Virus record (IMG/VR): IMGVR_UViG_3300048587_000114
Span: 3,646 to 67,645 of that record
Direction: 5' to 3' (one strand)
DNA from: a virus
Length of the DNA: 64,000 bases
Under the pieces are notes generated by a model. The model had not been told where the DNA came from and ran no database searches. It worked only from the letters and a program-made list of their open reading frames with translations. The position numbers and the translations under genes are program-made. Positions 40,623 through 60,070 of this stretch are shown here, one piece after another (position 1 is the stretch's first letter; each line of letters starts with the position of its first letter).

Positions 40623-42512
40623 TTAGAATGGTAGGTCAAGCTCATCCTCCACATCAAGCGGGTCAACATCAGCCGTCCAGCTATGCGTCCACATATTCGT
40701 ATTCTCATCGAATGCGGGAGTTGATAGCGCCCGGAGATTATTCATCGCCGTGTTGTAATCAACCCTATGGACGAACAGCGGCTCACGCGGTTGAATTGTG
40801 TACGAGTAGTCCGGTTGGTAGCTGAATACCCCCGGTTCCGCTGAACGGAACGTTATGGTCGGAGCGGACGGAGACGGGGCATTATCACCCGTCTCCGATG
40901 CCTCACGCCGCAAACGCGCACGTTCGGCACGACGTGCTACTGCTTCTCGATTGCTCTGGCATGTTGGGCATTCGAACGTGTCTCCACGCTGTGTGAACCG
41001 GTTCGTGCGCCGTGCTGTGTCTCCACAGTAAGAGCACCGGAGTCCTTGGCATTCGCCGCACATCCGCTCGGTGTACTCCTGACGGTAGGAGTGATCGACG
41101 TTGAACCGGAGCGTCTGCATGTTCTCGGTGTCTACCCGTGAACATCGCTGGCACGAATGAAGGTCGTAGCAATCCGCGCAAATCGTCGTCCGATCAGGCG
41201 TATGCGGGTTCATCAACACTTGCAGCGCATTGTCCATCGACACGGCGTTGTGGCAGATTGCACAGGGCTGGTCACGTAGCCACGTCTCGTAGCACGTTCG
41301 ACAGACTGGACTCGTTTCGCCATTCCGGTAGTAGGACGGGTAATAGAAGTTCAACCGGTTCCCGTTTCTCTCATAGAGATAGTCATTACAGTTCTGGCAT
41401 CGGTAGTCATCGACGCACAGACTGCACAACTGCCCCTCCGGGCCGTGTCCACGCATCCGATGCTCACAGGCTGTGCAAACGTGCTGCATCCGACAGTCGT
41501 AGCACATCCCGTCTCGGAAGTTGTTCCGGTCGCTTTCCGTTCCGCACTCAGAGCATGTCTGAATGAACGGATACCCGCTTGTACTGGTCAACTCATAAGT
41601 TGCGTGTGCCCCACGCTGGTGATTCTTGACACGGATGGTGCCCTCATCCTCATCAATGAATAGGTACTTGAACGTGTCGCAGTACGGGTAGCCCCGGCTT
41701 GAACCTGTCAGCAAGTCTACCGACAGGAACAACTGCTTACCGAGTTCTCCGGGCACATCCCACAGGGTTTCTCGTTCGAAGCTGTTCGCGTGCCGGATGA
41801 TGTATCCCTGTTCAGCGGCCCAATCACGCAGCATGTGAACAACGGTGTCGTTCCCATACGCCCGATCCATTGCCCACCCCTGTTCAACCGTATTCCACAG
41901 GAGCGCACGGCCAATCAGCAAGTCGCTCTGATCCGTCGCAATGACCATCTTCACCGCGTCCGGATTATTCACGTAGAAGTCCATGTAAGGTTGGCACTCA
42001 TCGTACCGCATGCACGACGTTCGCAGCGTACCGGTGCCACTTGGCGCGTAGTGATTCCCGTCATACCAATGACGGATAGCCTCACCCTCCACAATACGAA
42101 CCGATTGCCGGTCCTTCAGTACCCGTGCCCGGAGATGGTTGGTGAACTTCTCAAAGTCGCTGTCGGTCAGCGTCTTTAGTGTCTCCGGTGTCAGTAGCGC
42201 ACGGGCAACCTTTGCCGGTCGTCCCGCCTGTCGCAGCTTCTTATTCCATTCGATCCCTGTATCCAACGCCGTCTCAATCCGGGCCGTTGGCAGGTAGGTC
42301 AGTTCCCCCTCACCATTAATGGAGATGTAGTCACCAAATGCCTGATGCGTTCGGGCCAGCGGCTCACTCGTTGAACCGTACCAACTCCGGCGATACATGA
42401 GCGCCATAGCTACCCGGTCAGCGTAGTCGTAGATGAGCGTGTCAAGGATGTTTCGGAGTGACGCGGAGTAGGTAAGAATGTACGGGGTCAGGTCTTTAGC
42501 CATGTGCGTCAA
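40623..42512 (-). CDS. Cys-rich hypothetical protein (SCMR...GRALLW...DRxYG domain plus tandem CxxC array)
   Basis: 629 aa ORF; about a dozen CxxC; clear paralog of 45970-48387. Confidence 0.8.
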   Translation of the reverse strand: MTHMAKDLTPYILTYSASLRNILDTLIYDYADRVAMALMYRRSWYGSTSEPLARTHQAFGDYISINGEGELTYLPTARIETALDTGIEWNKKLRQAGRPAKVARALLTPETLKTLTDSDFEKFTNHLRARVLKDRQSVRIVEGEAIRHWYDGNHYAPSGTGTLRTSCMRYDECQPYMDFYVNNPDAVKMVIATDQSDLLIGRALLWNTVEQGWAMDRAYGNDTVVHMLRDWAAEQGYIIRHANSFERETLWDVPGELGKQLFLSVDLLTGSSRGYPYCDTFKYLFIDEDEGTIRVKNHQRGAHATYELTSTSGYPFIQTCSECGTESDRNNFRDGMCYDCRMQHVCTACEHRMRGHGPEGQLCSLCVDDYRCQNCNDYLYERNGNRLNFYYPSYYRNGETSPVCRTCYETWLRDQPCAICHNAVSMDNALQVLMNPHTPDRTTICADCYDLHSCQRCSRVDTENMQTLRFNVDHSYRQEYTERMCGECQGLRCSYCGDTARRTNRFTQRGDTFECPTCQSNREAVARRAERARLRREASETGDNAPSPSAPTITFRSAEPGVFSYQPDYSYTIQPREPLFVHRVDYNTAMNNLRALSTPAFDENTNMWTHSWTADVDPLDVEDELDLPF

Positions 42513-44713: not shown

Positions 44714-44739
44714 TATACATATATACGTATATATGTATA
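44714..44739. repeat. Perfect 26-bp AT-rich palindrome
   Basis: TATACATATATAC|GTATATATGTATA. Confidence 0.9.
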
Positions 44740-44934
44740 TACATATAATGCACATATATTGATATACACTATATCAACTATCATTACTGAAGCAGCTTTC
44801 CAATTGCAGGTCCGACTTGGTTGGCCGATCCCATGACGAAGCCCGAATGCAGTCGAAACAGATGATTGTTCGATGGGTGTCGAAGAACTTCTATAGGAGT
44901 CAACAAACTTCTGACGGATATTCATAAAAACACT

Positions 44935-45135
44935 CTAAGCGAATCGCTATAGAAACCCCTAAGCGAGTCGCTACCGGAAAGGTTCACCCGGAAAGATACC
45001 CGGAAAGGTATCCCCGGAAAGGTGACGCAGGCGCGTGCTTAGGAGCCTGAATCGGGAAAGATCGGACGTGCGTACCCGGAAAGATCAGGCGTGCGTGCGT
45101 CCGGAAACATACGCGTGCGTACGCGTTCGGAAACC
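44935..45135 (+). repeat. Iteron-like direct repeats
   Basis: CTAAGCGA(A/G)TCGCTA twice; CCGGAAAG at 44974, 44988, 45000, 45014, 45076 plus variants. Confidence 0.8.
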
Positions 45136-45280
45136 ACCCGTGCGAGACGGTTATGCCGATTTTGTGATATGCGAATTGCCGCGACCGGTCAATTCATTTA
45201 TGATGTAAAGTAAAGAAGCATTCTTGAGTTCTTTGTCAACTTAGTTGTTTAGTTCTTTGTCCACAATTACACAAGACGAT

Positions 45281-45329
45281 ACCCCTACGGGGTACGTGTC
45301 CTATTTTGGACGTCATACCCCGTAGGGGT
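45281..45329. repeat. 14-bp inverted repeat (stem-loop)
   Basis: ACCCCTACGGGGTA ... TACCCCGTAGGGGT. Confidence 0.8.
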
Positions 45330-45969
45330 TTACCGTACGTTTTGCGGTTTGTTCCGTGTTTGGAATCGGAGTCCGGACGGGGTTTCGTGTGTCCGGTTTG
45401 CTCGGTTGCTCGGAGACTCGGACGGGGTATGCGTCTCGGTTTCGTACCGTGTTCAGTGCTGGCACTTGGACGCGGTTTCCGTCTCCGTGTCCAGCACCAC
45501 GGAGACAACCGGAGACGAACGGAGACGGTACGAAACCGGAGACACGACCGAACACACATTGCCGCATACCGCGTGCCGTGTGACGCGTTGTGGCGTGTCA
45601 CGGCATGTACTCCGAGCGTTGCTCGGTTGCTCGGTTTGGCGTCCGATTCTGTACCCGTTGCGGACGGGGTTTGTACGGGGTTTCGTGCGTGTGCTGGACT
45701 CGGACTCCGAAACCACCTATAGCGTGGTATGTCCAGCATCGACGGAGACGCGCCTAGCATCGTCCGAGCGGCAATATTTTGACGTTAGCAGTATGTGTAC
45801 CCTAGTCCGCTCGGTTTCGTGCCGTACGTGGCATCCTAGCGCGTCAATGCTACGGAAACCGAAACAATACGCACGGGGTACCGCGTGGCACCGTCTCCGA
45901 GACACGAAAACACGGGTACGTGTACCCGTGTCTCCGTGCGGGTATGCGGTTGTCTGGACTCGGTACGCG

Positions 45970-48387
45970 TTACCGAGACGCGTTGTTTATGCGTGTCCGG
46001 TTGTTTGCGTACGTCACGGGATCAATACCGAGCGGGGTATACCGATACCGATACGCTGGCATGTACTGCCATTGCTCGGAGTCCGGAGTATTGCCGTTCA
46101 GCATGTCACCGAACAACGGGTACCGAGACTCGGACGGGGTTTCGGACACCGTGTCCACAATGCATACGTTACCCGTTGCGGGTACCGTAATTCCGTGTCC
46201 GAGTGCGGACACGCATCGTCCGGCGTCGTACCCGTGCGGGTACGGCAATTCAAACAAACGCGGTTGCCGCTGGCACGCAACGCACTCCGTGTGCCGTGTG
46301 TAGTCCGCTCGGTAGGAGTCGTTCACGTCGTGCCACGAACGAAACCGGAGACACACGGTACAACGGTTGTCCAGACAATCCGTACACACGGAGTCCGTAT
46401 CCAAGTTGTCCACAACCGCTTCACACACGCGGCACGTATGCGACTCCGAGCAATCCGAGCAATACCCGTTCGTTAGGTCGTCTCGGTCGTCCACGACGGT
46501 ACCGCAATCGTTGCATTGATAACCCGGCAAGCAACGCGGGCAATACCCGTCCGTGTGATTGTCTCCGTAGTCAAACCGTCCGCAATGCTGGCACGTCCGC
46601 TCGGAGTAGCAATCCGGACAAAGATCGTACCCGTTATCATCGTCCGCATCGTACGACGTGCCGCACTCCGAGCACTCTAAATACGCGTTGTGCGTTTCGT
46701 AATATCCGGACGTGGATTCCAACACGTAGTACATGCCGTCCGGCAAGTAGTGCTCGGACGTGGCAAGCGTACCCGTGTCCGGATGCAAGTAACGGAACGT
46801 GTCCATATACGGGTATTTGTCAAACCGAGCGTTACGGACGGTAACGGGACTCGCATCGTCCGTGTACCCGTGTTCGGTGGCGTATGTGTGAAATACCCGT
46901 TGCACAACGTCGTTACCGTACACGCGGTCCATATACGTTTCGCCATTGTCCAGCGTCCACAACAACGCACGTCCGAGCAATTCTCCGTCCGCATTGCGGT
47001 ACGTCAACAACGAAACCGTGTCCGGATTGTCCGTGTAAATCCGGAAATACGACTGGCACGAATAGTGCCGCATGCAGGAATGAGCCAGCGTACCGATACG
47101 ATGAGACGGTGCGTACCCGTCTTCCAAGTACGCATCTCGGATTGCGTCACCGGTCACAATTTCAAACGTTCCAAAAGACCGGGAGGCATACGCGCGAATT
47201 GCATTCGTTACGGTTTCGTAGTCTGCATCCGCGAATGCATCCGGAGTGCGTATTAGCATCCGGAGAACTTTAGACGGTTTGGCGGTTTGGCGCCCGGTTG
47301 CATCATATTCGTAATACTGCACGTCTTTACTGATTTTCGATGACGGCAGATAGGACAACCGGTTGCCACTGTCTGCAATGTCGACAAACGACGCTTTACG
47401 GATACACGTTTGCGGCATTCGGACGTACGCATGAACCGTATCCGAGACGGATAGCCCAGACTCCGTGTCCATTGCCACCACGGACACGGAAACGTTGTGT
47501 TGTGTGTCGTACCCGGAGTCCAGCAGTGCCGTTGCCAGTGCATACCCGCTTTCATCGGACGAAGTTTCGTACATGAACGCATGCAACGCGGCACGGACGG
47601 ACTCGGAAAGCGTTGCGGCAGTGTTCGTATTCCGGTTTCCGATTACATCACTACCGTCCGGAGACACGGACAACGCGGTAACGGTTTGGCGTATAGGGGT
47701 ACCGTACGTGTCTAAAACACGCTCGGAGACGGGTACGGCAAACAACATACGGTTTGGCGCGGTAGTTGTCTCATATTCCGAGCGCGCATCGTCCAGCGTG
47801 TCCAGACTGTACGCGTACCCGTACGTGTTTCCCGTGTGCCACGTCATAACCACGAACGAATGAATCAGGGTACCCGTAGGGATATGGACGGGGTATCCGG
47901 TTTCACGGTTAAGACGTTTCGCGGTTTCCGTCAATGCGGCAATGTCCGTCACGGTATTCGTCTCCGTTTCCGTTTCCGTTTCCGTGCTGGACTCCGAGTC
48001 CGTCTCGGAGTCCGTACGCCACAACGTTGCAAGCGTTTCCACAATGTCTGTACGACTGCACTCCGTCTCGGTTGTCGTACCGTCCGTGTACCGCGTGTGA
48101 ATCCGTGCGGACGTCGTGACGTATCCGAGCGTTTCATTGTGTGCGATGGTGTCCAGCGTGGTTCCGACCACGGACGAACACGTATCGCCGTAACACGTTC
48201 CAAGTTCATACGGGGTATCCGCATGCGTGGCGTACAACCGGACGGAGACGTATGCAATCACACGGTATCGCCGTTCGCGTGCGTCTCCGTGAACGGAGAC
48301 GTTAAATGCATCGTCCGTGCCGTACACAACCATTGCATTGTTAATGCGTCGTGCCAGTCGTGCGGTTTCGCTTTCCGTCCGTGCCAT
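45970..48387 (-). CDS. Large Cys-rich hypothetical protein, paralog of 40623-42512
   Basis: SCMRH...DNPD...GRALLW...MDRVYG...YPYMDTF...STSG then CxxC array; ATG 48387 after GGAG. Confidence 0.8.
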   Translation of the reverse strand: MARTESETARLARRINNAMVVYGTDDAFNVSVHGDARERRYRVIAYVSVRLYATHADTPYELGTCYGDTCSSVVGTTLDTIAHNETLGYVTTSARIHTRYTDGTTTETECSRTDIVETLATLWRTDSETDSESSTETETETETNTVTDIAALTETAKRLNRETGYPVHIPTGTLIHSFVVMTWHTGNTYGYAYSLDTLDDARSEYETTTAPNRMLFAVPVSERVLDTYGTPIRQTVTALSVSPDGSDVIGNRNTNTAATLSESVRAALHAFMYETSSDESGYALATALLDSGYDTQHNVSVSVVAMDTESGLSVSDTVHAYVRMPQTCIRKASFVDIADSGNRLSYLPSSKISKDVQYYEYDATGRQTAKPSKVLRMLIRTPDAFADADYETVTNAIRAYASRSFGTFEIVTGDAIRDAYLEDGYAPSHRIGTLAHSCMRHYSCQSYFRIYTDNPDTVSLLTYRNADGELLGRALLWTLDNGETYMDRVYGNDVVQRVFHTYATEHGYTDDASPVTVRNARFDKYPYMDTFRYLHPDTGTLATSEHYLPDGMYYVLESTSGYYETHNAYLECSECGTSYDADDDNGYDLCPDCYSERTCQHCGRFDYGDNHTDGYCPRCLPGYQCNDCGTVVDDRDDLTNGYCSDCSESHTCRVCEAVVDNLDTDSVCTDCLDNRCTVCLRFRSWHDVNDSYRADYTRHTECVACQRQPRLFELPYPHGYDAGRCVSALGHGITVPATGNVCIVDTVSETPSESRYPLFGDMLNGNTPDSEQWQYMPAYRYRYTPLGIDPVTYANNRTRINNASR

Positions 48388-48461
48388 TGCGTTGCACTCC
48401 GTTCCGTTTCGGTTGTCTAACAACCGTTCTACCTTGTCGCACACTCCGTACGACTGCGTTA

Positions 48462-48491
48462 AATGTACCCGACAATATGACGATTAGTCAA
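48462..48491 (-). promoter_or_regulatory. Putative promoter of the 45970-48387 gene
   Basis: Minus strand TTGACT-N18-TACATT. Confidence 0.45.
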
Positions 48492-49321
48492 ACATTGCGT
48501 TATGCCGTTGTTTTGTACGGTGTTTCGTCTCCGATTGTGCCGCAACAACGGCCAAACGCTCGGTTTACCTTATCGGTTTGTCGTGTCACGCGTACGCGTA
48601 CCATATACGGCATTTTTGACGACTCCGAGACGGTACCGAGACACGCTCGGACGCTCGGACGCTCGGTGCTGGCACCGTTGCTCGGTGCTGGCATGCTCGG
48701 AGACGTTGCCAGCGTTGCCAGCACTCCGAGCGGGTACGGACTCCGGACGGTACCGAGACGCCACAATACCCCGTAAACGCGTTGTGTTGCCTCATATTGC
48801 GTCGTAATGCGTGCATAGGTGTCCTGATTCATTTTGGCGGGGTAAACGCGTCTCCGTGTCTTGTGACGCGTTACAACGGCATTGCCCTATTTTCGGTTTC
48901 GCCCAAAATGCCGGTTGTTTGACTTTGCAAAGTAAAACCGCCTTCGTTTGTACGGCATCCGAGACGCAATACCGTATTTTGTACGGTTGCGTGTGCAAAA
49001 AAGTGTTTAGTTTGCCATACAAACGCGAAAAATGGTCCATTTTTGGGGTATGTCTCGGTTTCTGGCACCGTTGCGGGGTATTTTCACACGTTCGGAACGG
49101 CAAACGTTGTTCGGTTTCGGTGAACGTTGTTCGGTGGACGCGGTTATTGCTAACCGTGTTCGGGTATGCGTGCATGCGTACGGTATTCCGAACGACGTTC
49201 GGTTATGCGCTCGGAGACACACTCGGAGACACACTCGGAACGGGGTATGCATGCATGCGGGTACATGCTCGGTTGCGGCACGCTGGACACTGGACACGCT
49301 CGGTACGTGGTGTCCGGTTGT

Positions 49322-49345
49322 GTGGTGGTGGTGGTGGTGGTGGTG
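49322..49345. repeat. (GTG)n microsatellite
   Basis: About 8 tandem GTG units. Confidence 0.85.
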
Positions 49346-49847
49346 TCCAGCGTGTCCGGTTGTGGTGGTGACGTGGTGTCCGAGCGTCAACCGGGGTAAC
49401 GACTCCGTGGCGGTTTGGCGGGGTTTCGGTTTCGGGGTATGTCTCCGTTTCCGTCCGAGTCCGGAGACGGTACCCGGTTGCACGGGGTATCGGTTGTTCG
49501 TTGTGATACGTGCGTGTATGCGGGTATGGCGGGGTTTGGACCGGAGACGGAATCGGGTACGCACGGAAACGCGGAAAATAGGAAAGTAGGTTGACTAGTT
49601 CTATCGGTCCGGACGTGTCACGGTTAGGGGTTCTGTACCGAACGTTTCCTATCTTGGTTTGTGAGACGTTGTATCACCTATGGCACGGTATACCCCTAGT
49701 CCGTATAGGTGGCATATCTCCGTGTCTGCATACCCCATACCCCTACGCATACTGACACTATGCGTATTCCGGGTATGCCATAGGCCACATACCACAAGAT
49801 GTTGTGTACCCCTACCATGCATACCACTATATGTAGTGGTTTATCAC

Positions 49848-49907
49848 TGTATCATCATATCGTGATATCACCATATCATCATATCGTGATATCAGCATAT
49901 CGTGATA
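49848..49907. repeat. Tandem CATATCGTGATA repeats
   Basis: Three copies of CATATCGTGATA, two within TATCATCATATCGTGATATCA. Confidence 0.8.
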
Positions 49908-50336
49908 AGGGCATGGCCGGGGCACCCCCCGTCGGAAAAAAGTTGGACCACCTTCCTCTACGGGGCAGCCCCTCCCACGTTTTACCTTCGTATTCCTTTT
50001 TTGAAAGAGCTACGAACCATACCCCCTCCCCCTATCCAGCATTAGTAAGGTCGTTAGGTGCCTCTCTTTTTCTCTTTCTTTTGAAAATGGTAAAAGTAGT
50101 ATAAATACGTATCTATAGAGAGTTGCAAAAACAGGGGATTCTAAGGAGCTTACTAATTTGCCACGTAAAGGACTAAAAAACGCCCGGTATCTCGGGACGT
50201 TTTTGACCAAAAAAACACCGATGTTGCCAATTTACACATTAGTAAGCTATTTACAACCCAAAAATGGCGAAAAATGGCCCGATTTTGACTTGTTTTCAAG
50301 GCCGAAACCCGGTACAATGAGCGGAAAGGAGACGCA

Positions 50337-52153: not shown

Positions 52154-52227
52154 TTGGGTGTCGTTCAATGGTAGGACACGTCGCTGTTAACGATGGTATT
52201 GGGGTTCGAATCCCTGCACCCGAGCCA
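52154..52227 (+). tRNA. tRNA-Asn(GTT)
   Basis: Cloverleaf, CGTCG-CTGTTAA-CGATG, CCA end. Confidence 0.9.
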
Positions 52228-52229
52228 AT

Positions 52230-52304
52230 GGGAAGGTAGCGTAATGGAAACGCGGCTCTCTCCAAAAGAGTCAGATGGGGGTTCGAATCCTCTCCGTCCC
52301 GCCA
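52230..52304 (+). tRNA. tRNA-Trp(CCA)
   Basis: GCTCT-CTCCAAA-AGAGT, CCA end. Confidence 0.88.
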
Positions 52305-52305
52305 A

Positions 52306-52379
52306 TGCTTTGTCGGCTAACGGTAGGCCGCTTCGCTCTGGACGAAGTTGTTGTGGTTCGAATCCACACGAAGCAACCA
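52306..52379 (+). tRNA. tRNA-Gln(CTG)
   Basis: CTTCG-CTCTGGA-CGAAG, CCA end. Confidence 0.9.
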
Positions 52380-52387
52380 GAAACCCC

Positions 52388-52416
52388 TTGACAACGAATC
52401 AAGGGTATGCTAAAGT
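52388..52416 (+). promoter_or_regulatory. Internal tRNA-array promoter
   Basis: TTGACA-N17-TAAAGT with extended -10 TG. Confidence 0.6.
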
Positions 52417-52561
52417 AGATACAGTGGAAATGAGGAACGAGACGAACACAGAAATCGAGCCGAAAGGATAACGATGATGTAACCGCTCAACTCACTTCTT
52501 TGAGGGCTGTGCCGTGCAGGTCGCGGTGCATAAGGAACCGGTAAGCACCGGGAACCCAAAT

Positions 52562-52636
52562 GTCGGGGTAGCTCAGTGGTAGAGCACTTGTCTCATAAGC
52601 AAGAACGCATGGGTTCGAATCCCTTCCCCGCCACCA
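52562..52636 (+). tRNA. tRNA-Met(CAT) (Ile2 not excluded)
   Basis: CTTGT-CTCATAA-GCAAG, CCA end. Confidence 0.85.
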
Positions 52637-52752
52637 GAGGTTCGCAGCGTTCCGTGATAAACTGCGTGTGGACGTGCGATTCACATAAAATAAAGAGCAC
52701 AGACCCCGCAGACACGATGCGGGACGGGGTTGCAAACCTGTCGAAAAATCGG

Positions 52753-52823
52753 GCCGGGTTGATGTAGGTGGACTGGCATATCCCCCTGAAGGGGAAAGCG
52801 TGGGTTCGACTCCCACACCGGAG
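52753..52823 (+). pseudogene. Degenerate tRNA-like element
   Basis: Good T arm GTGGG-TTCGACT-CCCAC and TCCCC-CTGAA-GGGGA arm, poor acceptor stem. Confidence 0.45.
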
Positions 52824-52824
52824 T

Positions 52825-52923
52825 TTGCTCGTAGGACAATTGGCAGTCTAACCGTGTAAATCGGGGGCGTACGACCTTGGAGGCACGGACATGTTGCAGG
52901 TTCGAACCCTGCCGAGCAAGCCA
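52825..52923 (+). ncRNA. tRNA-like RNA with 27-nt anticodon loop
   Basis: Acceptor TTGCTCG/CGAGCAA, D arm GGAC/GTCT, CCGTG/CACGG stem, T arm GCAGG-TTCGAAC-CCTGC, G+CCA. Confidence 0.75.
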
Positions 52924-53025
52924 CCCGCGATCTGACCAATTGCGGGGAGAGTCGCGGTTCGGCGGGAGTCGTAACCCAATGAACCCCCTGACCGGGCAGG
53001 GATGGAGTAACGATCCACCCGGTAT

Positions 53026-53098
53026 TTCGCAGTAGCTCAGGGGTTAGAGCACATCTCTGATACAGATGGTGCCGGTGGTTCGATTCCACCCTGCGGAA
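53026..53098 (+). tRNA. tRNA-Ile(GAT)
   Basis: CATCT-CTGATAC-AGATG; no encoded CCA. Confidence 0.85.
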
Positions 53099-53227
53099 CT
53101 GAGGCCGGTGAAGCCTGCGATGCGAAGCGTCGAGAGTACGACGATAGTACCGCGAAGATACCTCGGGTCGGCACCCTATGATACGTGTCGTGGGCCGCTG
53201 GCAATAGCCTGTGTATGAGGCCCGAAT

Positions 53228-53300
53228 GCTGGCATACGCTAATCGGCAGGCGAACGCTCTTTCAAAGCGTTGTGTGCGAGTTCGACTCTCGCTGTCAGTA
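53228..53300 (+). tRNA. tRNA-Glu(TTC)
   Basis: ACGCT-CTTTCAA-AGCGT. Confidence 0.85.
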
Positions 53301-53450
53301 CCGGGTAGATGTACTACCCTTTACAAATCACCGTGTCTCTGGCCGCACTCCCTGTGGTACGACCTGTTCGGTGCAAGCCCGAACGAAAAGCCCCGGACTA
53401 ACCAACCGGGCACGCCCCGGATACATCCCAAATCCGCTCCGGGGCACCTT

Positions 53451-53523
53451 GCCGGGATCGTCTAGCGGTCTAGGACGTATGGTTCTCAGCCATGCAGCCG
53501 GGGTTCGAATCCCCGTCTCGGTA
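53451..53523 (+). tRNA. tRNA-Glu(CTC)
   Basis: TATGG-TTCTCAG-CCATG. Confidence 0.85.
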
Positions 53524-53645
53524 CGAGCCTTGGGCTTCGGCGTAAAACTGCCCACGACCTGAGTATAACGTCGTTAAACTCGCTCCGGAGGATACGTCCT
53601 CCGTCTGGACCTGTAGCTCAATCGGGAGAGCGTCGGTACTGGTAT

Positions 53646-53719
53646 GGGAGATTTGCATAATGGAAGTGCTCTTGGCTTACATCCAAGAAGCGGTGGTTCG
53701 ATTCCATCATCTCCTACCA
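53646..53719 (+). tRNA. tRNA-Val(TAC), nested inside the split tRNA
   Basis: CTTGG-CTTACAT-CCAAG, CCA end. Confidence 0.88.
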
Positions 53720-53738
53720 GTTTCAAGGAGAGTAAATA

Positions 53739-54161
53739 GTGCCAATGCCATACAAACCGAGAGCGGAATGTAAACGCTGCGGGGCTCTGGTAAAGTTTAC
53801 AAAAACGGTTTTCTGTAGTCAGGAATGCCAAATTACACATAAGCGAGAAACCTATCTCGCTCGGTGGAAGTCTGGACAGGAAAAAGGCTACGGAAAGTAC
53901 GGGCAACTGTCTAACACGATTCGGGAGTATATCTTGAAGCGTGCCGGGTATCAATGCGAGGAATGTGGGTGGCACAAAAAGCATCCCGTTACTGGTAGCG
54001 TACCGGTGGAGGTACACCATAAAGACGGTGACTATGCAAATACGCATGAGGGCAATCTGATTGTTCTGTGCCCAAACTGCCATTCACTTACTCCTAACCA
54101 CGGAGTTTATAATAAAGGGAAGGGAAAACCGTATATTCGCCTTGCAAAAGCAGTACCGTAG
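53739..54161 (+). CDS. HNH endonuclease nested inside the split tRNA
   Basis: CEECGW...EVHHKDG...NLIVLCPNCHSLT; RBS AAGGAG. Confidence 0.9.
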   Translation: MPMPYKPRAECKRCGALVKFTKTVFCSQECQITHKRETYLARWKSGQEKGYGKYGQLSNTIREYILKRAGYQCEECGWHKKHPVTGSVPVEVHHKDGDYANTHEGNLIVLCPNCHSLTPNHGVYNKGKGKPYIRLAKAVP

Positions 54162-54248
54162 GTTCTAGGTTCGAGTCCTAGTAGGTCCACCAGTCGAAGA
54201 AGCAGGGGACATAGGGTACCCGTCTTAATAATCCTGCGGAGACTGCAT

Positions 54249-54334
54249 GGGGATGTTTTGGTGTTCGCCCGGTAGATGCGAGGGTACAACCTTGATGATC
54301 GCCGGAAACGTGGGTTCGACTCCCACCATCTCCA
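54249..54334 (+). ncRNA. Miniature tmRNA-like RNA (tRNA-like domain only)
   Basis: GGGGATG/CATCTCC with G3:U70, stemless D loop TTTTGGTGTTCGC, T arm GTGGG-TTCGACT-CCCAC, closed by a short hairpin. Confidence 0.7.
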
Positions 54335-54492
54335 CCGAGACGTTGAGCAGTCGTCTCAAAAAACAGGCTCACGGTTGATTGCACCGGGCTGTTCTCCTGC
54401 ACGGAGACGGCAAGCAATCCTAACGCTTCGGGTCCGCTGGACGGGCGGCTGTGCAGAGAGACGGTAGAAATCCCTCACCGAAGCGTTCACTT

Positions 54493-54574
54493 GGGTTGGT
54501 ATGCAAGCGGCTCAAAGCAGCGTGTCTGTAAAACACGTCCTACTGGTTCACAGGTTCGAATCCTGTCCAGCCCA
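54493..54574 (+). tRNA. tRNA-Tyr(GTA)
   Basis: CGTGT-CTGTAAA-ACACG, long variable arm. Confidence 0.88.
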
Positions 54575-54583
54575 CCGGAGGCA

Positions 54584-54841
54584 ATGATGCGATTTGCTGA
54601 ACAGAACGTAGAAATCGAATCGCTCTACATTTCGCTGGCAATTCTGACTATCGGCATCTATGCAGCCGTGTCATCAGACGATCCAGAGGAAATGAAGCAA
54701 CAACTGAAGAATGCCGCCGTGCATGCACAAGCGGCCTTCCCTGAGCCGTACCACACGGTACTCATGGAGAAGATCGGAGAGCATGCGTTTCGGGATGACG
54801 TCGAGCAGACGCGTCCGCAATATCACACTGAGGGCCGATAG
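54584..54841 (+). CDS. Hypothetical protein
   Basis: RBS GGAGG; stop codon lies inside tRNA-Ala. Confidence 0.55.
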   Translation: MMRFAEQNVEIESLYISLAILTIGIYAAVSSDDPEEMKQQLKNAAVHAQAAFPEPYHTVLMEKIGEHAFRDDVEQTRPQYHTEGR

Positions 54842-54903
54842 CTTAACGGGAAAGCTACTACCTTGCACGTAGTCAGATTGGGGTTCGAATCCCCATTGGT
54901 CCA
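54832..54903 (+). tRNA. tRNA-Ala(TGC)
   Basis: ACTAC-CTTGCAC-GTAGT, G3:U70. Confidence 0.9.
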
Positions 54904-54927
54904 CCGAGTAGGTGAAAGGAGAACACG

Positions 54928-55206
54928 TTGCCTATTCTTTCGTCAGTGAAACAAAAGACCAAGGTTTCGACCAGTTCAACGATTGAAACGACACTGGAAG
55001 CGAAACTCGCAGAAGTCGCGGAACTGACAGAGCAACTTGAAGCAACCGCTGTGCAAGAGATTGACGCATCGAATCAGTCGATTGCTGATCTTGAATCGCG
55101 GATTGCAGCAATTCAACAACGGAAGATGATTGCCAAGGGACGTATCGAACGAGCGGCACAAACCAGAGCGTTGTTCCAACCCGTTCCTCCGGTACAAACC
55201 AAGTAA
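54928..55206 (+). CDS. Coiled-coil hypothetical protein
   Basis: RBS AAGGAG, TTG start. Confidence 0.55.
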   Translation: MPILSSVKQKTKVSTSSTIETTLEAKLAEVAELTEQLEATAVQEIDASNQSIADLESRIAAIQQRKMIAKGRIERAAQTRALFQPVPPVQTK

Positions 55207-55240
55207 TGATCTTTTGATGGTGATGCAAGGAAGTGATACC

Positions 55241-55621
55241 GTGCAGCTAGTATGCAACCAGTGTGAGAAATCATACAAAGCAGAAAAGAGAACGTCGAAA
55301 TACTGTTCCCGAGCTTGCAGCAACACGGCACGCCGAGGGATGACGTATTCGAAAGACTCTCACGGTAACAGTTCCAGACAACGCCTTAATTTGCTGAAAA
55401 ACACGTTCAACTTTACCGAGTGTATGGTAGAGGGTTGTGGCTATACAAAAACGTTTGACATTCACCGATATATACCCGGTAAATTGGGTGGAGAATATGT
55501 CATCGGCAATATGTATGCTATTTGCCCAAACTGCCATGCAGAAGTATCTCGGGGAATTGTAACGTTTGAAAAAGTAGACGATAAAACACTTCGGATCAGT
55601 GGGGTAACGGTAGCCCAATAG
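55241..55621 (+). CDS. HNH endonuclease
   Basis: CNQC...YCSRAC; CMVEGC...DIHR...ICPNCHAE; stop lies inside tRNA-Ser; start uncertain. Confidence 0.8.
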   Translation: MQLVCNQCEKSYKAEKRTSKYCSRACSNTARRGMTYSKDSHGNSSRQRLNLLKNTFNFTECMVEGCGYTKTFDIHRYIPGKLGGEYVIGNMYAICPNCHAEVSRGIVTFEKVDDKTLRISGVTVAQ

Positions 55622-55675
55622 TCTTGAAAACTATCTAACCGAAAGGTTATGTGAGTTCAAATCTCACCTGATCCT
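55593..55675 (+). tRNA. tRNA-Ser(TGA)
   Basis: ATAGT-CTTGAAA-ACTAT, long variable arm. Confidence 0.85.
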
Positions 55676-55679
55676 CCGT

Positions 55680-55765
55680 GGACGATTGGGATAAGGGTAT
55701 TCCAGAGGGTTGCTATCCCTCCCAACCGCAAGGTTGTGTGCGTTCGAATCGCACATCGTCCTCCA
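55680..55765 (+). tRNA. tRNA-Ser(GCT)
   Basis: GAGGG-TTGCTAT-CCCTC, long variable arm, CCA end. Confidence 0.88.
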
Positions 55766-55788
55766 TCTGAGAAAAGGTTTATATACGC

Positions 55789-56121
55789 ATGCCAAAAGTT
55801 ATAAAGTATGCCGACTACATTCCTTTGTGGAAGGCGGGACTTGTAAGCGGAAATCGCGGTATAATACATATAGACGTCTCTGCGAATGTGCGCCGTTACT
55901 TGCTTGAAAGGTGCGGAAATACGTGTGAAGAATGCGGTTGGGGCGCGATAAATCCGTTTACCGGAAAAGTAACACTTGAAGTTCATCACATTGATGGAGA
56001 CTATCAGAACAGCAGAGAAGAAAACTTAAAAGTGCTCTGCCCAAACTGTCACTCTTTAACCTATAACTATAGAGCAAGAAATAAGTCCGGGTTGGCACAA
56101 AGCCTACCCAAGAAAAGGTAA
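55789..56121 (+). CDS. HNH endonuclease
   Basis: CEECGW...LEVHHIDG...NLKVLCPNCHSLT. Confidence 0.9.
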   Translation: MPKVIKYADYIPLWKAGLVSGNRGIIHIDVSANVRRYLLERCGNTCEECGWGAINPFTGKVTLEVHHIDGDYQNSREENLKVLCPNCHSLTYNYRARNKSGLAQSLPKKR

Positions 56122-56125
56122 TCAT

Positions 56126-56200
56126 CGGGGTTTAGCGTAAGGGTTAGCGCACGTCGTTTGGGACGATGTGGACAGGTTTCGAGTACCTGATCCCCGACCA
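56126..56200 (+). tRNA. tRNA-Pro(TGG)
   Basis: CGTCG-TTTGGGA-CGATG, CCA end. Confidence 0.88.
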
Positions 56201-56217
56201 CGGGAAGGAGAAACCGT

Positions 56218-56307
56218 ATGAACTGGAACCTGATTGCAGCGATTTTCTTGGGCGTATTCTTTGCGCTCCTTGCATGGGCACTATTGACCGATCAAATCGT
56301 TCTCTAA
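56218..56307 (+). CDS. 29-aa membrane peptide
   Basis: RBS AAGGAG; MNWNLIAAIFLGVFFALLAWALLTDQIVL. Confidence 0.55.
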   Translation: MNWNLIAAIFLGVFFALLAWALLTDQIVL

Positions 56308-56316
56308 GGAGGGAAT

Positions 56317-57093
56317 GTGGTTCAGATTAACCGTGAGGGGCCAAAAGTCTTTTTGGTCGGGTATACACAGCCGGTCATGCCAGAAATCCGCCGCTATCTA
56401 GATCATCGCGGTGTGAAATGGATTACGGAGAATCCGAAGGATGATCCACTGGCGATTGTTGAAATGGCAGGCCGTGTGTGCTACCACAGTTGGCGGAATC
56501 CGCAAGGGCGGACACGTCAGGAATATATTGCCGAGCAAATTATCGGGCATGAGCATGGAAGCGTGCTCGAACACGTCTGGTTCAATATGCTGGTGGCAGA
56601 CCTTCCCCGAAGTTCGCAGCTTGAATTGGTGCGACATGGGGAAGGAACGGGATTTAGTTTCGAAAGTCAACGGTTTACGGACGCTCATCTACGATTCGTG
56701 GTTCCACCACGGCTACGGGAGGACGACGATGCCATTGCACTCTTTACAAGCGCGGCGAATCTCGCACAAGACTACTACACAGCGTTGCAGGCACTGTCGG
56801 GGTCCGACTCCGATGAAGGAACGCTTGCACGGAAACGCATCAAGGAAGCAGCACGGGCTGTGCTCCCGAATGCCGCTGGAAGCGACGGTATGGTAAGCAT
56901 GAATGGCCGTGCCGCACGGCACATCATTAATCTGCGATCCAACGAACATGCGGACCTCTCAATCAGAGAGTTTGCATGGGAAGTGTATCAGGCGATTTCA
57001 GATGTTGCTCCGGCACTCTTTGCCGACGCAACCGTGAACTATGGAGCGAGTGACGGGATTCCGTCTGTCTCGTTCGAACATCCGAAGGTCTAG
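56317..57093 (+). CDS. thyX: Flavin-dependent thymidylate synthase
   Basis: AGRVCY, HGSVLEH, ELVRH...SQR, EAARAVLPN. Confidence 0.9.
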   Translation: MVQINREGPKVFLVGYTQPVMPEIRRYLDHRGVKWITENPKDDPLAIVEMAGRVCYHSWRNPQGRTRQEYIAEQIIGHEHGSVLEHVWFNMLVADLPRSSQLELVRHGEGTGFSFESQRFTDAHLRFVVPPRLREDDDAIALFTSAANLAQDYYTALQALSGSDSDEGTLARKRIKEAARAVLPNAAGSDGMVSMNGRAARHIINLRSNEHADLSIREFAWEVYQAISDVAPALFADATVNYGASDGIPSVSFEHPKV

Positions 57094-57160
57094 GAGAATG
57101 CACGGGCCGTCAGACTACTGCACATCGTAAGAACAGGCCCGGAGACGCGTCCGGGCACAT

Positions 57161-57234
57161 TCAGGGATCGGTTAACGGTAGGCCGATGGTCTTTGGAACC
57201 ATCTGTATAGGTTCGAATCCTATTCCCTGATCCA
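57161..57234 (+). tRNA. tRNA-Gln(TTG)
   Basis: ATGGT-CTTTGGA-ACCAT, CCA end. Confidence 0.9.
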
Positions 57235-57235
57235 T

Positions 57236-57324
57236 GCCCTTCTGGTGGAACTGGCAGACACGACGGCCTCAAACGCCGGAGCCGAGGGATCGGCGTACAG
57301 GTTCAAGTCCTGTGAGGGGTACCA
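57236..57324 (+). tRNA. tRNA-Leu(CAA)
   Basis: CGGC-CTCAAAC-GCCG, long variable arm, CCA end. Confidence 0.85.
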
Positions 57325-57325
57325 C

Positions 57326-57354
57326 TTGACAAGTAGTCGGAAATCGGGTATACT
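57326..57354 (+). promoter_or_regulatory. Internal tRNA-array promoter
   Basis: TTGACA-N17-TATACT. Confidence 0.8.
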
Positions 57355-57375
57355 GATTTCAGTGAAGGAGACGAG

Positions 57376-57615
57376 ATGCCGAAGATCGCATTTATCAAAT
57401 GGGACACAGGCGACTGGATTCAGATGTACGTCAACGGGGAGAAAGTCTATGAAGGACATTCGATCCCAAGAGACGAACTTCTGAGACTGGCCGGAGTAGA
57501 GTTCGACTCCTACGAAATCCTCGGAGAGAGCGATGAAGCGGAAATGATCGGTTGGTCGGGAAAGTCCCTTGACGAAGCACTTGTCATTGTGAACGACGTA
57601 CTAGTGTGTTACTAG
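57376..57615 (+). CDS. Hypothetical protein
   Basis: RBS AAGGAG; GDWIQMYVNGEKVYEGHS. Confidence 0.6.
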   Translation: MPKIAFIKWDTGDWIQMYVNGEKVYEGHSIPRDELLRLAGVEFDSYEILGESDEAEMIGWSGKSLDEALVIVNDVLVCY

Positions 57616-57622
57616 TACACAT

Positions 57623-57707
57623 GCGTGGGTGGTGGAACTGGTATACACGCTAGTCTTAGAAACTAGTGCCCGAGAGGGCGTGATGGGTTCGAATCCCTCC
57701 CTGCGTA
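57623..57707 (+). tRNA. tRNA-Leu(TAG)
   Basis: CTAGT-CTTAGAA-ACTAG, long variable arm. Confidence 0.88.
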
Positions 57708-57833
57708 CCGTAGCCAAGCGCCTCTCCCGAGAGAGCCGACCATGAATCGTTAGTCTCGGTGAAGCAATTCGGGCTGGAAAGACGGATGCATACGGTGAGC
57801 CAGCAGTTATGTCCGGACTCAATCGGGCACATA

Positions 57834-57901
57834 GGATATGTGTAGCTCAATTGGCAGAGCACCGTCTAAAACCGGAGATTCGGTTTAAGTCCGACACTTC
57901 C
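57834..57901 (+). pseudogene. Degenerate tRNA
   Basis: Canonical D arm TAGCTCAATTGGCAGAGC, shortened anticodon arm, T loop TTTAAGT, bulged acceptor stem. Confidence 0.55.
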
Positions 57902-57906
57902 CTCAT

Positions 57907-57978
57907 GCTGATGTAGCTCAGTGGTAGAGCGTCTGATTGAAGTCCAGATGGTCGGCGGTTCGAATCCGCCTGTCAGCA
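57907..57978 (+). tRNA. tRNA-Phe(GAA)
   Basis: TCTGA-TTGAAGT-CCAGA. Confidence 0.85.
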
Positions 57979-58103
57979 CCGGTCGAATAATCCGATAGAC
58001 CAAAAGAACCGGAGCGTTACTCACACGCTTGCAAGCCAGATATGGTGCGACGGTACGGGTTGAGATTTCTGATTTCGGCCAAATGACGTACGCATTTGGC
58101 AAC

Positions 58104-58179
58104 ATCCCTGTGGTATAATGGACAGTGCAGCACGTTTCTACCGTGCAAGGTGCGGGTTCGAATCCTGCCGGGGATACCA
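58104..58179 (+). tRNA. tRNA-Arg(TCT)
   Basis: GCACG-TTTCTAC-CGTGC, CCA end. Confidence 0.88.
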
Positions 58180-58180
58180 C

Positions 58181-58254
58181 GGTCGCATAGCTCAATTTGG
58201 GAGAGCACCGGCTTGTCACGCCGGAGGTTGCGGGTTCGATCCACGTCGTGACTG
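58181..58254 (+). tRNA. tRNA-Asp(GTC)
   Basis: CCGGC-TTGTCAC-GCCGG. Confidence 0.82.
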
Positions 58255-58287
58255 CTAACAACTAACCTATCAAAACGGAGGTTAAGC

Positions 58288-58716
58288 ATGGGTAATGTGA
58301 AAAAGGCGGAAACACTCGGTATGCCGCATGGCACGGCTACAAATCGCTTACGTAAACAGTTGTTATTTAAGTATGTCTGTCTTGCAGGAGACAATATATG
58401 TTATAAGTGTAAGAATATAATAGAACTGATTGACGATTTATCTATTGAACACATTAAACCGTGGGAGGGTAGGTCCGCAGAACTATTTTGGGATTTGAGT
58501 AATATAGCGTTTAGTCATATCTCTTGTAATAGACCGCACGTTAACGGAGCGGTAAGACGCCGGATAAGTTTAGATGGTGATGTTTTTCGTTGTTGTTCAT
58601 GTAAACAGACGAAAGAACGGTCGAATTTTGGTATAAGCAGTAGTCGATGGAATAATGTGCAGTCAGAATGTAAAGATTGTCGTAATAAACGCCCGAGAGT
58701 GCGTCAGTCGTCGTGA
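58288..58716 (+). CDS. HNH-like endonuclease
   Basis: CYKC...SIEHIKPW...NIAFSHISCN; C-terminal CCSC...CKDC. Confidence 0.75.
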   Translation: MGNVKKAETLGMPHGTATNRLRKQLLFKYVCLAGDNICYKCKNIIELIDDLSIEHIKPWEGRSAELFWDLSNIAFSHISCNRPHVNGAVRRRISLDGDVFRCCSCKQTKERSNFGISSSRWNNVQSECKDCRNKRPRVRQSS

Positions 58717-58735
58717 TCGCCAGTAGCTCGTTTTT

Positions 58736-58810
58736 GCCGGTGTAGTGTAAAGGAAAACACGCAACGCTTCGAACGTTGTAGTGCGGGTTCGAGTCCTGCC
58801 AGCGGCACCA
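58736..58810 (+). tRNA. tRNA-Arg(TCG)
   Basis: CAACG-CTTCGAA-CGTTG, CCA end. Confidence 0.88.
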
Positions 58811-58825
58811 CGGAAAGGGTACGGT

Positions 58826-59086
58826 ATGCAAGTCGAAGTCATGTACCGGGAGCCTGATACGTACCCGGCAATTCACTGGAACGGCCATAACAGTGCTGAT
58901 GTGCAAGCGTGGCTGGATCGGAATCTTCGTTTGTCGGGGGACTACGATAATCAATATTGTGTGCGGAATAATGTTCTCTATCTTGGAATGTATACCCTTC
59001 CGGTGAATACGTGGTTGGTGGCTGACGGGAGCGTGCAGGACTTTACCGAAAGGGAATTTGCAAGTATATTTCTTGTCGTTTCCTAA
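58826..59086 (+). CDS. Hypothetical protein
   Basis: AIHWNGHN...NTWLV...EFASIF. Confidence 0.55.
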   Translation: MQVEVMYREPDTYPAIHWNGHNSADVQAWLDRNLRLSGDYDNQYCVRNNVLYLGMYTLPVNTWLVADGSVQDFTEREFASIFLVVS

Positions 59087-59093
59087 GTTCTAT

Positions 59094-59166
59094 GGTGTTT
59101 ATGGCCGAGCGGTCTAGGCGCATGCCTGTGGAGCATGTTACACGGGTTCGAACCCCGTTAGGCACC
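59094..59166 (+). tRNA. tRNA-His(GTG)
   Basis: CATGC-CTGTGGA-GCATG, G-1:C73. Confidence 0.88.
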
Positions 59167-59172
59167 CTGAGT

Positions 59173-59246
59173 GAGCGGTTGGCCGAGTGGTTAGGCGCGT
59201 CTCTGCAACAGACAGGACAGCGGTTCGAATCCGCTACCGCTCTCCA
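59173..59246 (+). tRNA. tRNA-Cys(GCA)
   Basis: GTCT-CTGCAAC-AGAC, U73, CCA end. Confidence 0.88.
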
Positions 59247-59247
59247 C

Positions 59248-59319: not shown

Positions 59320-59321
59320 CT

Positions 59322-59743: not shown

Positions 59744-59760
59744 TGTGCTACGGAGAACCA

Positions 59761-60069: not shown

Positions 60070-60070
60070 T

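Follow-up and report, generated by a model that had tools for sequence, protein, structure and literature searches.

An island of restricted DNA vocabulary in a siphovirus-like genome: a possible end-adjacent segment under selection on double-stranded DNA

We analyzed a 64,000-base stretch of viral DNA (the window), which covers bases 3,646-67,645 of the 67,645-base IMG/VR record IMGVR_UViG_3300048587_000114 (G000). A preliminary description had noticed that positions 45,240-49,620 of the window are built from few DNA words. A 4-mer likelihood-ratio scan now delimits an island at 45,256-49,780, the sole region of the 67.6-kb genome with a mean log-likelihood ratio above 0.1, which contains one gene (P0001) between two long non-coding flanks. 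We propose, with a probability of about 0.35, that the island is an end-adjacent, early-acting segment in which selection on double-stranded DNA confines the sequence to a small, safe lexicon. That a selected, double-strand-level, end-proximal feature lies here is established; the selecting agent is not. The island and its parts are the following.

45,256-49,780, no strand: compositional island, the maximum-scoring segment of the 4-mer likelihood-ratio scan.
45,256-45,969, no strand: non-coding flank 3' of the gene, in island vocabulary, period-3 power 0.26-0.86 (genome median 2.2).
45,970-48,444, minus strand: gene P0001, 824 amino acids (aa) from a GTG start, with homologues and a period-3 power of 2-6.
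48,445-49,780, no strand: non-coding flank 5' of the gene, in island vocabulary, period-3 power 0.3-1.2.

The words that the preliminary description had counted by eye in 45,240-49,620 were checked against the expectation from the rest of the genome, and all of the counts hold. AGCT is absent (9.4 expected), GATC occurs twice (16.5) and GGCC once (11.6); on both strands together there are four CTTC/GAAG (49.1), two CCTC/GAGG (19.5) and three CAGG/CCTG (29.4). AG+CT steps are halved in the segment, and CG and AC+GT steps are up 1.6-fold. The 4-mer entropy (H4) of 1-kb windows starting at 45,001-49,001 was 7.13-7.40, versus 7.54-7.81 for every window with a start no later than 44,501 or no earlier than 49,501. 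Markov correction does not remove the depletion: the 6-mer entropy of the island is 10.12, which is 19, 12 and 4 standard deviations below models of order 1 (10.80±0.036), 2 (10.59±0.039) and 3 (10.28±0.038) fitted to the segment. An order-4 model alone reproduces the value, and the effect therefore far exceeds base, di- and trinucleotide composition. The island has 1,604 distinct 6-mers (2,324-2,518 in five controls), and 68 of the 512 strand-symmetrised 5-mers have no copy in it (3-8 in 13 controls). Measured against the remainder of the genome, its dinucleotide distance delta* is 209 (x1000), whereas 37 controls average 37 and reach at most 70. Its rho* values are 0.44 for AG/CT, 1.60 for CG and 1.57 for AC/GT; GC (0.78) and AT (0.89) are also down and CA/TG is unchanged. 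To our knowledge, 0.44 for AG/CT and ~1.6 for CG and AC/GT lie outside the genome-wide values of the genome-signature literature.

The shift covers the open reading frame (ORF) and both flanks, as the preliminary description had claimed for coding and non-coding DNA alike; in the 3' flank AG+CT make up 7.0% and CG 12.5% of steps. Coding periodicity is limited to 46,050-48,300 within the island, and none of 10 alternative island ORFs matched PHROGs. The statement that the segment holds one convincing gene is thus borne out by the period-3 signal and the homologues of P0001. Both edges had been called sharp. The left edge is, falling within ~100 bp, but the right edge fades over ~300 bp.

The simplest rule that describes the island is that purine or pyrimidine runs are avoided and alternating words are favored. 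6-mers with 0, 1, 2, 3, 4 and 5 purine/pyrimidine (R/Y) switches occur at 0.10, 0.64, 0.83, 0.98, 1.52 and 2.45 times their level in the rest of the genome; in five control windows, the 5-mer switch classes stayed within 0.92-1.16 bar one value (0.71, for the fully alternating words of one control). Purine or pyrimidine runs of at least 6 number 13 (48-97 in 37 controls), and the longest is 7 (9-18). Alternating runs of at least 8 number 56 (8-28) and those of at least 10 number 19 (1-7), the longest being 19. The favored steps AC, CG, GT and TA form the ACGT cycle, all 4-mer registers of which are up 2.1-2.8-fold. Judged by their richness in CG and AC/GT steps, the long alternating runs would be Z-DNA-prone. 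Alternation is 0.591-0.604 in the island, whereas the maximum in a convenience survey of 2,073 windows of 2 kb, taken from 220 other viral loci, was 0.588.

These data raise the possibility that a physical property of the dinucleotide steps, alternating and free of homopurine tracts, is what is selected. Candidates are the bendability of last-packaged, first-ejected DNA, the absorption of negative supercoils by Z-DNA or cruciforms between diverging transcription units, and the avoidance of triplexes or R-loops. The monotonic gradient with R/Y switches, the excess of alternating runs over R or Y runs and the isolated position of the island in the survey fit such a property. So do its strand symmetry and blindness to coding status, its place at a point of divergent transcription and presumed end, and a step pattern common to two phages with different lexicons (AC/GT and CG up, AG/CT down, alternation up). 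We nevertheless hold this explanation to be unlikely, since some alternating steps (GC, AT, CA/TG) are not favored, 5-mers that conform to the rule can still be missing (ACGAG, 0 versus 20) and no precedent for kilobase-scale, sequence-encoded phage mechanics is known to us or came up in the literature searched. It is quite unlikely, too, that phages can place at their chromosome ends a physical module that is encoded in kilobases of sequence, whose mechanics or alternative structures matter for packaging or ejection and whose lexicon drifts while the step pattern is kept.

The constraint acts at the DNA level, symmetrically on the two strands and not via RNA or protein, because the bias is present at synonymous sites, in the non-coding flanks and equally on both strands. 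In the island, k-mer counts track those of the reverse complements with correlations of 0.93, 0.90 and 0.81 (k 3-5), and in the ORF alone with 0.88, 0.84 and 0.74, versus -0.03 to 0.40 in five controls from the same genome. Codon use in the island gene differs from that of 18 reference genes: AAG is one of its eight Lys codons (66% in the reference genes), ACG makes up 65% of Thr codons (33%) and TCC 45% of Ser codons (17%). We then kept the protein fixed and redrew its codons from the genome's usage in 500 simulations. Compared with this back-translation, the gene has z-scores of -20.4 for 4-mer entropy, -18.5 for distinct 6-mers and -8.8 for AG+CT, and AGCT, GATC, GGCC and TCGA together have 4 sites instead of 25.6. 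This departure is still seen in the conserved domain (aa 345-600, z -6.0) and the GNAT-like core (aa 420-531, z -4.2; AG+CT 14 versus 29.8, z -4.1). A paralogue that lies 3.5 kb away provides an internal control.

40,623-42,512, minus strand: paralogue of P0001, 629 aa, in ordinary vocabulary (BLASTP 31% identity over 442 aa, E 3e-46).

In the aligned parts of the two proteins, AG+CT has a z-score of 0.1 for the paralogue and -5.7 for P0001. The H4 z-scores of the same parts are -5.6, a mild loss of k-mer diversity, and -11.3; those of the large terminase (TerL), PolA and the peptidase range from -0.5 to -3.5.

Slippage, microhomology-mediated duplication and gene conversion among short repeats might produce a restricted vocabulary locally and without function. 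The island does hold many short tandem and dispersed repeats: TTGCTCGG x2, ACGGAGACGA x2.9 and GTTGCTCG x2.4 in the 3' flank, and ACGCTCGG x3, CTCGGAGACACA x2.5 and a (GTG)8 run in the 5' flank. The poorly conserved N-terminus of P0001 contains low-complexity stretches (TETETETE, DSETDSES), and contigs from other samples carry deletions between repeats, at 48,010>48,403 (X1 and X3; 392 bases, in the gene's N-terminal part) and 48,637>49,226 (X1; 588 bases, in the upstream flank). Moreover, the signal dips at the most conserved part of the gene, 47,000-47,300. Such a neutral process would however have to account for the synonymous-site bias in the conserved core, for sharp edges, for the uniqueness of the island in each of two genomes and for a bias of the same direction in a relative with no blastn-detectable island sequence in common, and we consider it highly unlikely. 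The idea that the flanks are decayed gene copies was rejected: tblastn of both paralogues against the flanks gave nothing at E<=0.01.

The relative (G001; 67,968 bases, 46% GC, CheckV 100% complete) keeps an island of the same kind. Its locus L152 was flagged by an alternation screen of homologue loci, and in the survey this locus alone approached island composition at the homologous gene. The TerL proteins of the two phages are 75% identical, and the genomes are collinear with 64-76% nucleotide identity in conserved genes. G001's island spans 3.6 kb (63,569-67,169) around an orthologue of P0001 (740 aa, 33% identical), at the same site and in the same gene order. Its rho* values are shifted in the same directions relative to the rest of its genome (AC/GT 1.43 versus 1.04, AG/CT 0.62 versus 0.85, CG 1.53 versus 1.21), delta* is 165 and GC is 51% versus 46%; in both phages the island lies 4-5 GC points above the rest. 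Alternation reaches 0.59-0.60 in the G000 island and 0.57-0.59 in that of G001, where the genome medians are ~0.51 and 0.49. G001's island has 1,735 distinct 6-mers (versus 2,091-2,271) and 38 absent pentamers (versus 2-10 in 13 controls). Its ORF departs from back-translation (H4 z -12.2, CG z +8.9), whereas G001's own paralogue is normal (z -1.1). When k-mer ratios of island to rest are compared between the two phages, r is 0.59, 0.47 and 0.39 (k=3, 4 and 5), versus -0.41 to 0.23 for 20 G001 control windows at k=4. A blastn search between the two islands gave no hit. Conservation of the step pattern and low diversity while the words drift points to continuing selection or a continuing local process, and it argues against an unameliorated import.

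Three further observations concern G001. As a caveat, a G001-specific, T/S/G/V-rich ORF of 1,095 aa (L234 4,499-7,786, plus strand), unrelated to the island protein, shows a weaker shift in the same direction (CG z +7.1, H4 z -6.9). Palindromic ATTGGTnnGACCAAT-type iteron arrays, which look like operator or partition-type sites, bracket the island (L152 1-290 and 4230-4560) and fill a 223-bp overlap of the G001 ends. ARAGORN called two tRNAs with anticodon TTA, which reads the stop TAA (L234 9588-9659 and 11218-11291); these are possible suppressor tRNAs, and none was called among the window's 26 tRNAs.

Some words of the G000 island are far more frequent than expected, including the 7-mers CGGAGAC (25 versus 1.3) and GCTCGGA (19 versus 0.7). 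CGGAGAC recurs at 10-bp spacing at 45,499-45,527. GCTCGG has 69 sites in the window, 31 of them within the island, and 14 of its 18 flank sites are on the plus strand; the 5' flank in particular carries arrays of GCTCGG-type words, mostly in that orientation (9 of 11 GCTCGG sites). G001 fills the same flanks with another word: CCWGG, in AACCAGG-type words, occurs 41 times in 8 kb (9.1 expected); ~20 of these copies lie upstream in a single orientation, and the ORF contains just 4. Elsewhere G001 does not avoid CCWGG (31 versus 21.8 in 20 kb).

The flanks could be lineage-specific arrays of words to which a DNA-binding protein of the phage attaches; the zinc-ribbon-rich island gene product, with its ~9 CxxC pairs, is a candidate. 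At the chromosome end, the resulting nucleoprotein platform might have a role in packaging, control of ejection, replication or regulation, much as the repeat-rich non-coding region next to the first-step-transfer DNA of T5, and the composition of the gene would follow via local duplication or gene conversion. The orientation bias, the 10-bp spacing and the exchange of one word for another between the phages, which looks like co-evolving protein-DNA specificity, fit this proposal, as does an over-use of words that avoidance alone leaves unexplained. Yet the shift is as strong or stronger inside the ORF, even at synonymous sites of the conserved core where binding sites have no obvious reason to be. 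Furthermore, dozens of words rather than one motif are over-used, most of them in both orientations, and no helical periodicity of the words was found, their sole preference being a 6-nt spacing of CGG/CCG. We see a platform of this kind as possible, though somewhat unlikely.

The whole genome avoids words that resemble restriction sites. Outside the island (63 kb), 22 of the 64 six-base palindromes are absent and ten more were seen once or twice, versus only 8 absent among 2,016 non-palindromic 6-mers. Six-base palindromic sites total 462 there, versus 919 (Markov) or 994 (composition) expected, and CCWGG occurs 4 times (83 expected). CTCCTC, CTCTTC, GAAGAC, CTCAAG, CTCCAG, GACATC and GAGACC are nearly absent genome-wide; several of these asymmetric words are Type IIS/IIG recognition sites. 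The island obeys both lists, with 1 site for the 22 forbidden palindromes (10.9-30.8 expected from its own composition) and 2 for the forbidden asymmetric set (9.4-13 expected), which argues against a chimera or a recent import. Beyond the genome's list, it has nearly eliminated AGCT (0), GATC (2), GGCC (1) and TCGA (3), with 9-18 expected. GANTC (28 versus 18.9) was not telling for a CcrM-type explanation, and a hypermodified base was discarded as an idea when the thymidylate-synthase-like gene proved to be an ordinary ThyX. The window's methylase is nearest M.RsrI by sequence.

A gene with its flanks might also have arrived from a phage whose oligonucleotide signature is very different, without having ameliorated yet. 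A complete gene plus flanks between sharp edges, the raised GC of both islands and the K-poor, T/D/Y-rich composition that P0001 has in common with its relatives P0003 and P0011 would suit such an origin. We judge it very improbable. The island obeys the resident word lists and its rho* values lie outside the genome-wide values known to us; it also occupies the same site in a relative at 65-70% in conserved genes whose flanks are beyond blastn, by which time a foreign signature should have decayed. Mobility genes and terminal inverted repeats were not found in the island. A transposon was rejected on the latter ground and for want of any copy of the island sequence elsewhere in the genome.

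We next consider the surroundings of the island, where these features lie.

44,714-44,774, no strand: AT-rich palindromic repeat at the inner edge of the island.
44,974-45,134, no strand: CCGGAAAG-type iterons at the inner edge.
48,462-48,491, minus strand: sigma-70-like promoter match (TTGACT-18-TACATT, 9/12) just upstream of the gene.
49,842-49,901, no strand: 24-bp tandem repeats, TATCACCATATCATCATATCGTGA x2.5, at the outer edge (Tandem Repeats Finder).

Transcription diverges at the island, as the preliminary description had it: the minus strand carries the genes on its left, and the plus strand the tRNAs and ORFs on its right. The promoter is a consensus match only, and the region's count of such sites equals the shuffle expectation. 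The cumulative GC-skew minimum (~45 kb) coincides with the palindrome and iterons, and by analogy 44,714-45,134 could be origin- or operator-like. ACCCGGAAA, considered as a motif bracketing the island, has exact copies on the left side only. Directly outside the AG/CT-poor island, on the right, lies a moderately pyrimidine-rich tract (49,900-50,090; 58-65% C+T on the plus strand), which has a weak tblastx match to G001 272-370.

The 'direct terminal repeat' of the G000 record is a 127-bp exact overlap that corresponds to the assembler k-mer only; the assembly is therefore circular and silent on real ends. In G001, the first 223 bases equal the last 223 at 99.55%, and because of the one mismatch IMG/VR calls this genome linear. 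Both G001 ends (36-105 and 67,781-67,850) align with the tandem repeats that mark the island's outer edge, at window 49,842-49,907. This point lies inside 49.6-50.0 kb, where the preliminary description had put the genome end, and a break placed at random would come this close, to a few hundred bases, in ~1% of cases. The mapping is a pointer and not proof, given that repeats and strain diversity attract breaks.

In favor of an artefact is that the stretch comes from a metagenomic assembly whose end overlap is only an assembler k-mer. Short contigs from four other runs (shares 0.08-0.16, with parts of the stretch uncovered) contain sequence that is 85-99% similar. A 352-nt contig with 0 differences spans 45,012-45,362 across the left edge, and another contig spans 49,603-50,013. 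In addition, a separate 26.5-kb contig encodes a 99%-identical protein (P0002), the forbidden-palindrome list is that of the remaining genome, and G001 has the homologous island in the same gene order. A chimera or other assembly artefact, a concern raised at the outset, is scarcely credible.

How would selection on an end-adjacent segment shape such an island? The conserved segment would comprise two long non-coding flanks and, between them, a single gene of early type whose reading direction is from the presumed end inward. Selection on double-stranded DNA would confine the sequence to safe words with no R/Y runs, few AG/CT steps and many ACG/CGT, CCG/CGG and GTAC, and in the unconstrained flanks slippage or duplication would multiply these words. 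The most likely reason is that this DNA has to work while still naked, as infection begins, in a phage under exceptional sequence-specific host nuclease pressure. With about one-third fewer distinct 6-mers and almost no purine-rich asymmetric words, it would offer fewer possible targets. In favor of this proposal are the strand-symmetric constraint at the DNA level, its conservation in G001, the extreme restriction avoidance of the whole genome, the scarcity of R/Y runs and the mapping of the G001 ends; its precedents are the restriction rules for first-entering DNA in T5-like phages (PMC10644984) and in Murciavirus (PMC12455610). We infer a physical terminus in the window phage, entry of this end first, and defence evasion as the selective agent.

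Several results weigh against this proposal. The segment had been described as purged of restriction motifs. It does respect the genome's forbidden words, but palindromes are not preferentially depleted: the median log2 change of 4-mers is -0.38 for palindromes versus -0.37 for non-palindromes (p 0.84), so that the two classes are shifted alike and the expected enrichment for restriction-type palindromes is not seen. Tolerated six-base palindromes are enriched relative to other words (+0.32 versus -1.08, p 0.04), and the island has 74 six-base palindromic sites, the genome's highest count (19-46 in 14 controls). TCCGGA (13), CGTACG (11), ACGCGT (10) and GGTACC (9) are enriched among them, and the 4-mers GTAC (63 versus 22), ACGT (45 versus 21) and CGCG (32 versus 16) are over-used. 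When we forbade the 42 most depleted 4-mers, a model sequence reached 60 GTAC (observed 128), 66 ACGG (observed 146) and a 6-mer entropy of 10.65 (observed 10.14). Avoidance therefore gives about half of the excess of favored words, and the remainder is positive over-use. The genome-wide Markov bias fails to predict the island bias (Spearman -0.04, -0.02 and -0.16 for k 4-6). Six-base palindromes are purged outside the island as well, so that a general anti-restriction function expressed from the island evidently does not shield that DNA.

The evidence from other genomes also has points on this side. G000 and G001 share mainly the dinucleotide-step pattern and not a word list, and G001's CCWGG words look more like binding-site arrays. 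The G001 contig break could come from local repeats or strain diversity and not from a real end, and the terminase genes lie ~45 kb away from the presumed end. The first-step-transfer (FST) segment of phage T5 has no vocabulary restriction: its 1-kb 4-mer entropy is 7.39-7.57, versus 7.39-7.69 beyond it, and its distinct 6-mers per 4.4 kb number 2,184-2,197, versus 2,245-2,403. The k-mer diversity of the terminal repeat of phage P23-45 is ordinary as well.

P0001 probably starts at the ATG at 48,387, as in P0002. Its closest full-length relatives are P0003 and P0011 (both 41% identical), and 3,157 representative homologues (E<=1e-3) have its central domain in common. The protein consists of an N-terminal T/S/E/D-rich region, the conserved core and CxxC zinc ribbons (aa ~590-712). 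A structure model is confident for aa ~280-700, with a predicted local distance difference test score (pLDDT) above 90 at aa 420-531. The modeled core weakly resembles GNAT folds: it aligns to many GNAT structures (Z 5.0-6.2, root-mean-square deviation 2.8-3.7, 85-99 residues), the best Foldseek E is 0.01, there is no Pfam GNAT hit, and a Z below 8 may reflect a mere common arrangement. Searches of P0001 against Pfam, PHROGs, NCBIfam and PADLOC returned 0 families, so no match of the T5 A1/A2/dmp type. PcfJ-like (PF14284) was a language-model neighbor only (0.79, below the lead threshold), and no Pfam family was found at E<=0.01. The family core, with an invariant S-C-M motif, occurs in the two paralogues 3.5 kb apart in the window, and huge-phage records each have 7-15 places that match the family.

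Scans of viral, metagenome and genome contigs based on PolA and on P0001 found distant domain homologues only, and the first locus sets showed no island. The locus scan was built from a 6-sequence alignment, since conservation was too low throughout a 36-sequence one. At least 119 loci came from a scan for three spaced CGGAGAC words, mostly coding repeats and none with the island vocabulary (best 4-mer profile correlation 0.59). For 79 other loci with family members the screen was for low 4-mer entropy only. Low-entropy windows near family members in AT-rich phages were set aside, as the one inspected (L154) was ordinary AT/K-rich coding DNA. A blastn search of the island region and of 24 kb of flank against 50,697 phage records gave no match.

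The genome is siphovirus-like, with a large terminase (683-2,101), a portal, a major head protein and a 1,293-aa tape measure. A minus-strand replication block at 24-44 kb encodes PolA, an SNF2 helicase, a PD-(D/E)XK nuclease, an N6/N4 methylase, an integrase, RtcB and a peptidase; PolA is a family A DNA polymerase (window 24168-26717, minus strand) with an N-terminal uracil-DNA-glycosylase-like domain. The 26 tRNA genes (window 52,154-60,149, plus strand) cover nearly all amino acids and are interspersed with HNH endonuclease and ThyX genes. Genes of nucleotide metabolism also lie on the plus strand; besides ThyX, the phage encodes a dNMP kinase, a nucleoside 2-deoxyribosyltransferase and a MazG-like protein. 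An 852-aa minus-strand ORF runs from window 62440 across the record junction to G000 1125, 124 bp from the start of the late operon on the other strand; its first 498 aa, the part tested, gave no family hit.

If the island is leading DNA, it would reveal a general counter-defence strategy in which exposed DNA is written in a minimal safe lexicon instead of losing single sites, a lexicon strong enough to bend the amino-acid and codon usage of a conserved gene. In uncultured phages, the end that enters first and the earliest gene could then be located by purely computational means. A structural or protein-binding cause would instead mean an undescribed sequence requirement at phage chromosome ends. 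In either case the locus is a clean natural experiment, with paralogues 3.5 kb apart, one recoded and one not, and a feature kept in two diverged phages.

A literature search turned up no description of such an island in the portions of the sources retrieved, and the comparisons below hold for the portions of the cited reports that were available. The closest parallel is the FST segment of T5 and BF23. Like the window phage, these are siphoviruses with a large tRNA set and, as presumed here, an end-adjacent segment with one or more early genes, adjoined by a long non-coding stretch (in T5 and BF23 the 'injection stop') that has many direct and inverted repeats. For T5-like phages, restriction takes place only when the first-transferred DNA contains sites, which makes sensitivity a matter of the FST segment (PMC10644984). 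The T5 system includes a long terminal repeat and a two-step transfer. The rest of the T5 genome carries restriction sites, whereas the window genome avoids them throughout. T5-type pre-early takeover genes (A1, A2, dmp) were not found among the island ORFs by family searches, though a gene of an undescribed family could act as an analogue.

In Murciavirus phages and T7-like leading regions, too, the location of a motif in the first-entering DNA decides restriction, and not its genome-wide count; Murciavirus phages escape a Type I system when their leading region is without the motif (PMC12455610). There, however, one bipartite motif in podoviruses is at stake, whereas the island involves hundreds of words and an R/Y-run rule. 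The leading regions of conjugative plasmids are enriched in GC and codon-adapted, with no consistent depletion of palindromes, according to a 2026 study (PMC13478746). The island is likewise raised in GC, but its shift covers non-coding DNA and is strand-symmetric, so codon adaptation cannot explain it.

The revised map of P23-45 places the terminal repeats and the first-expressed genes where transcription diverges, and the genes next to the end are read inward (PMC10770324). The same arrangement is presumed here. P74-26, a close relative of P23-45, encodes a P0001-family member whose module also contains PolA, a RecB-type nuclease and an integrase; there, though, the family member is far from the end. 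A virion RNA polymerase was not seen in the tape-measure protein of the window phage, and the tract at 49.9-50.1 kb, only 58-65% pyrimidine, is not comparable to the P23-45 triplex tract. Finally, palindrome avoidance is a known habit of phages, which this genome shows to an extreme degree and which the island obeys. The extra bias of the island is local, is not centred on palindromes and has a positive component.

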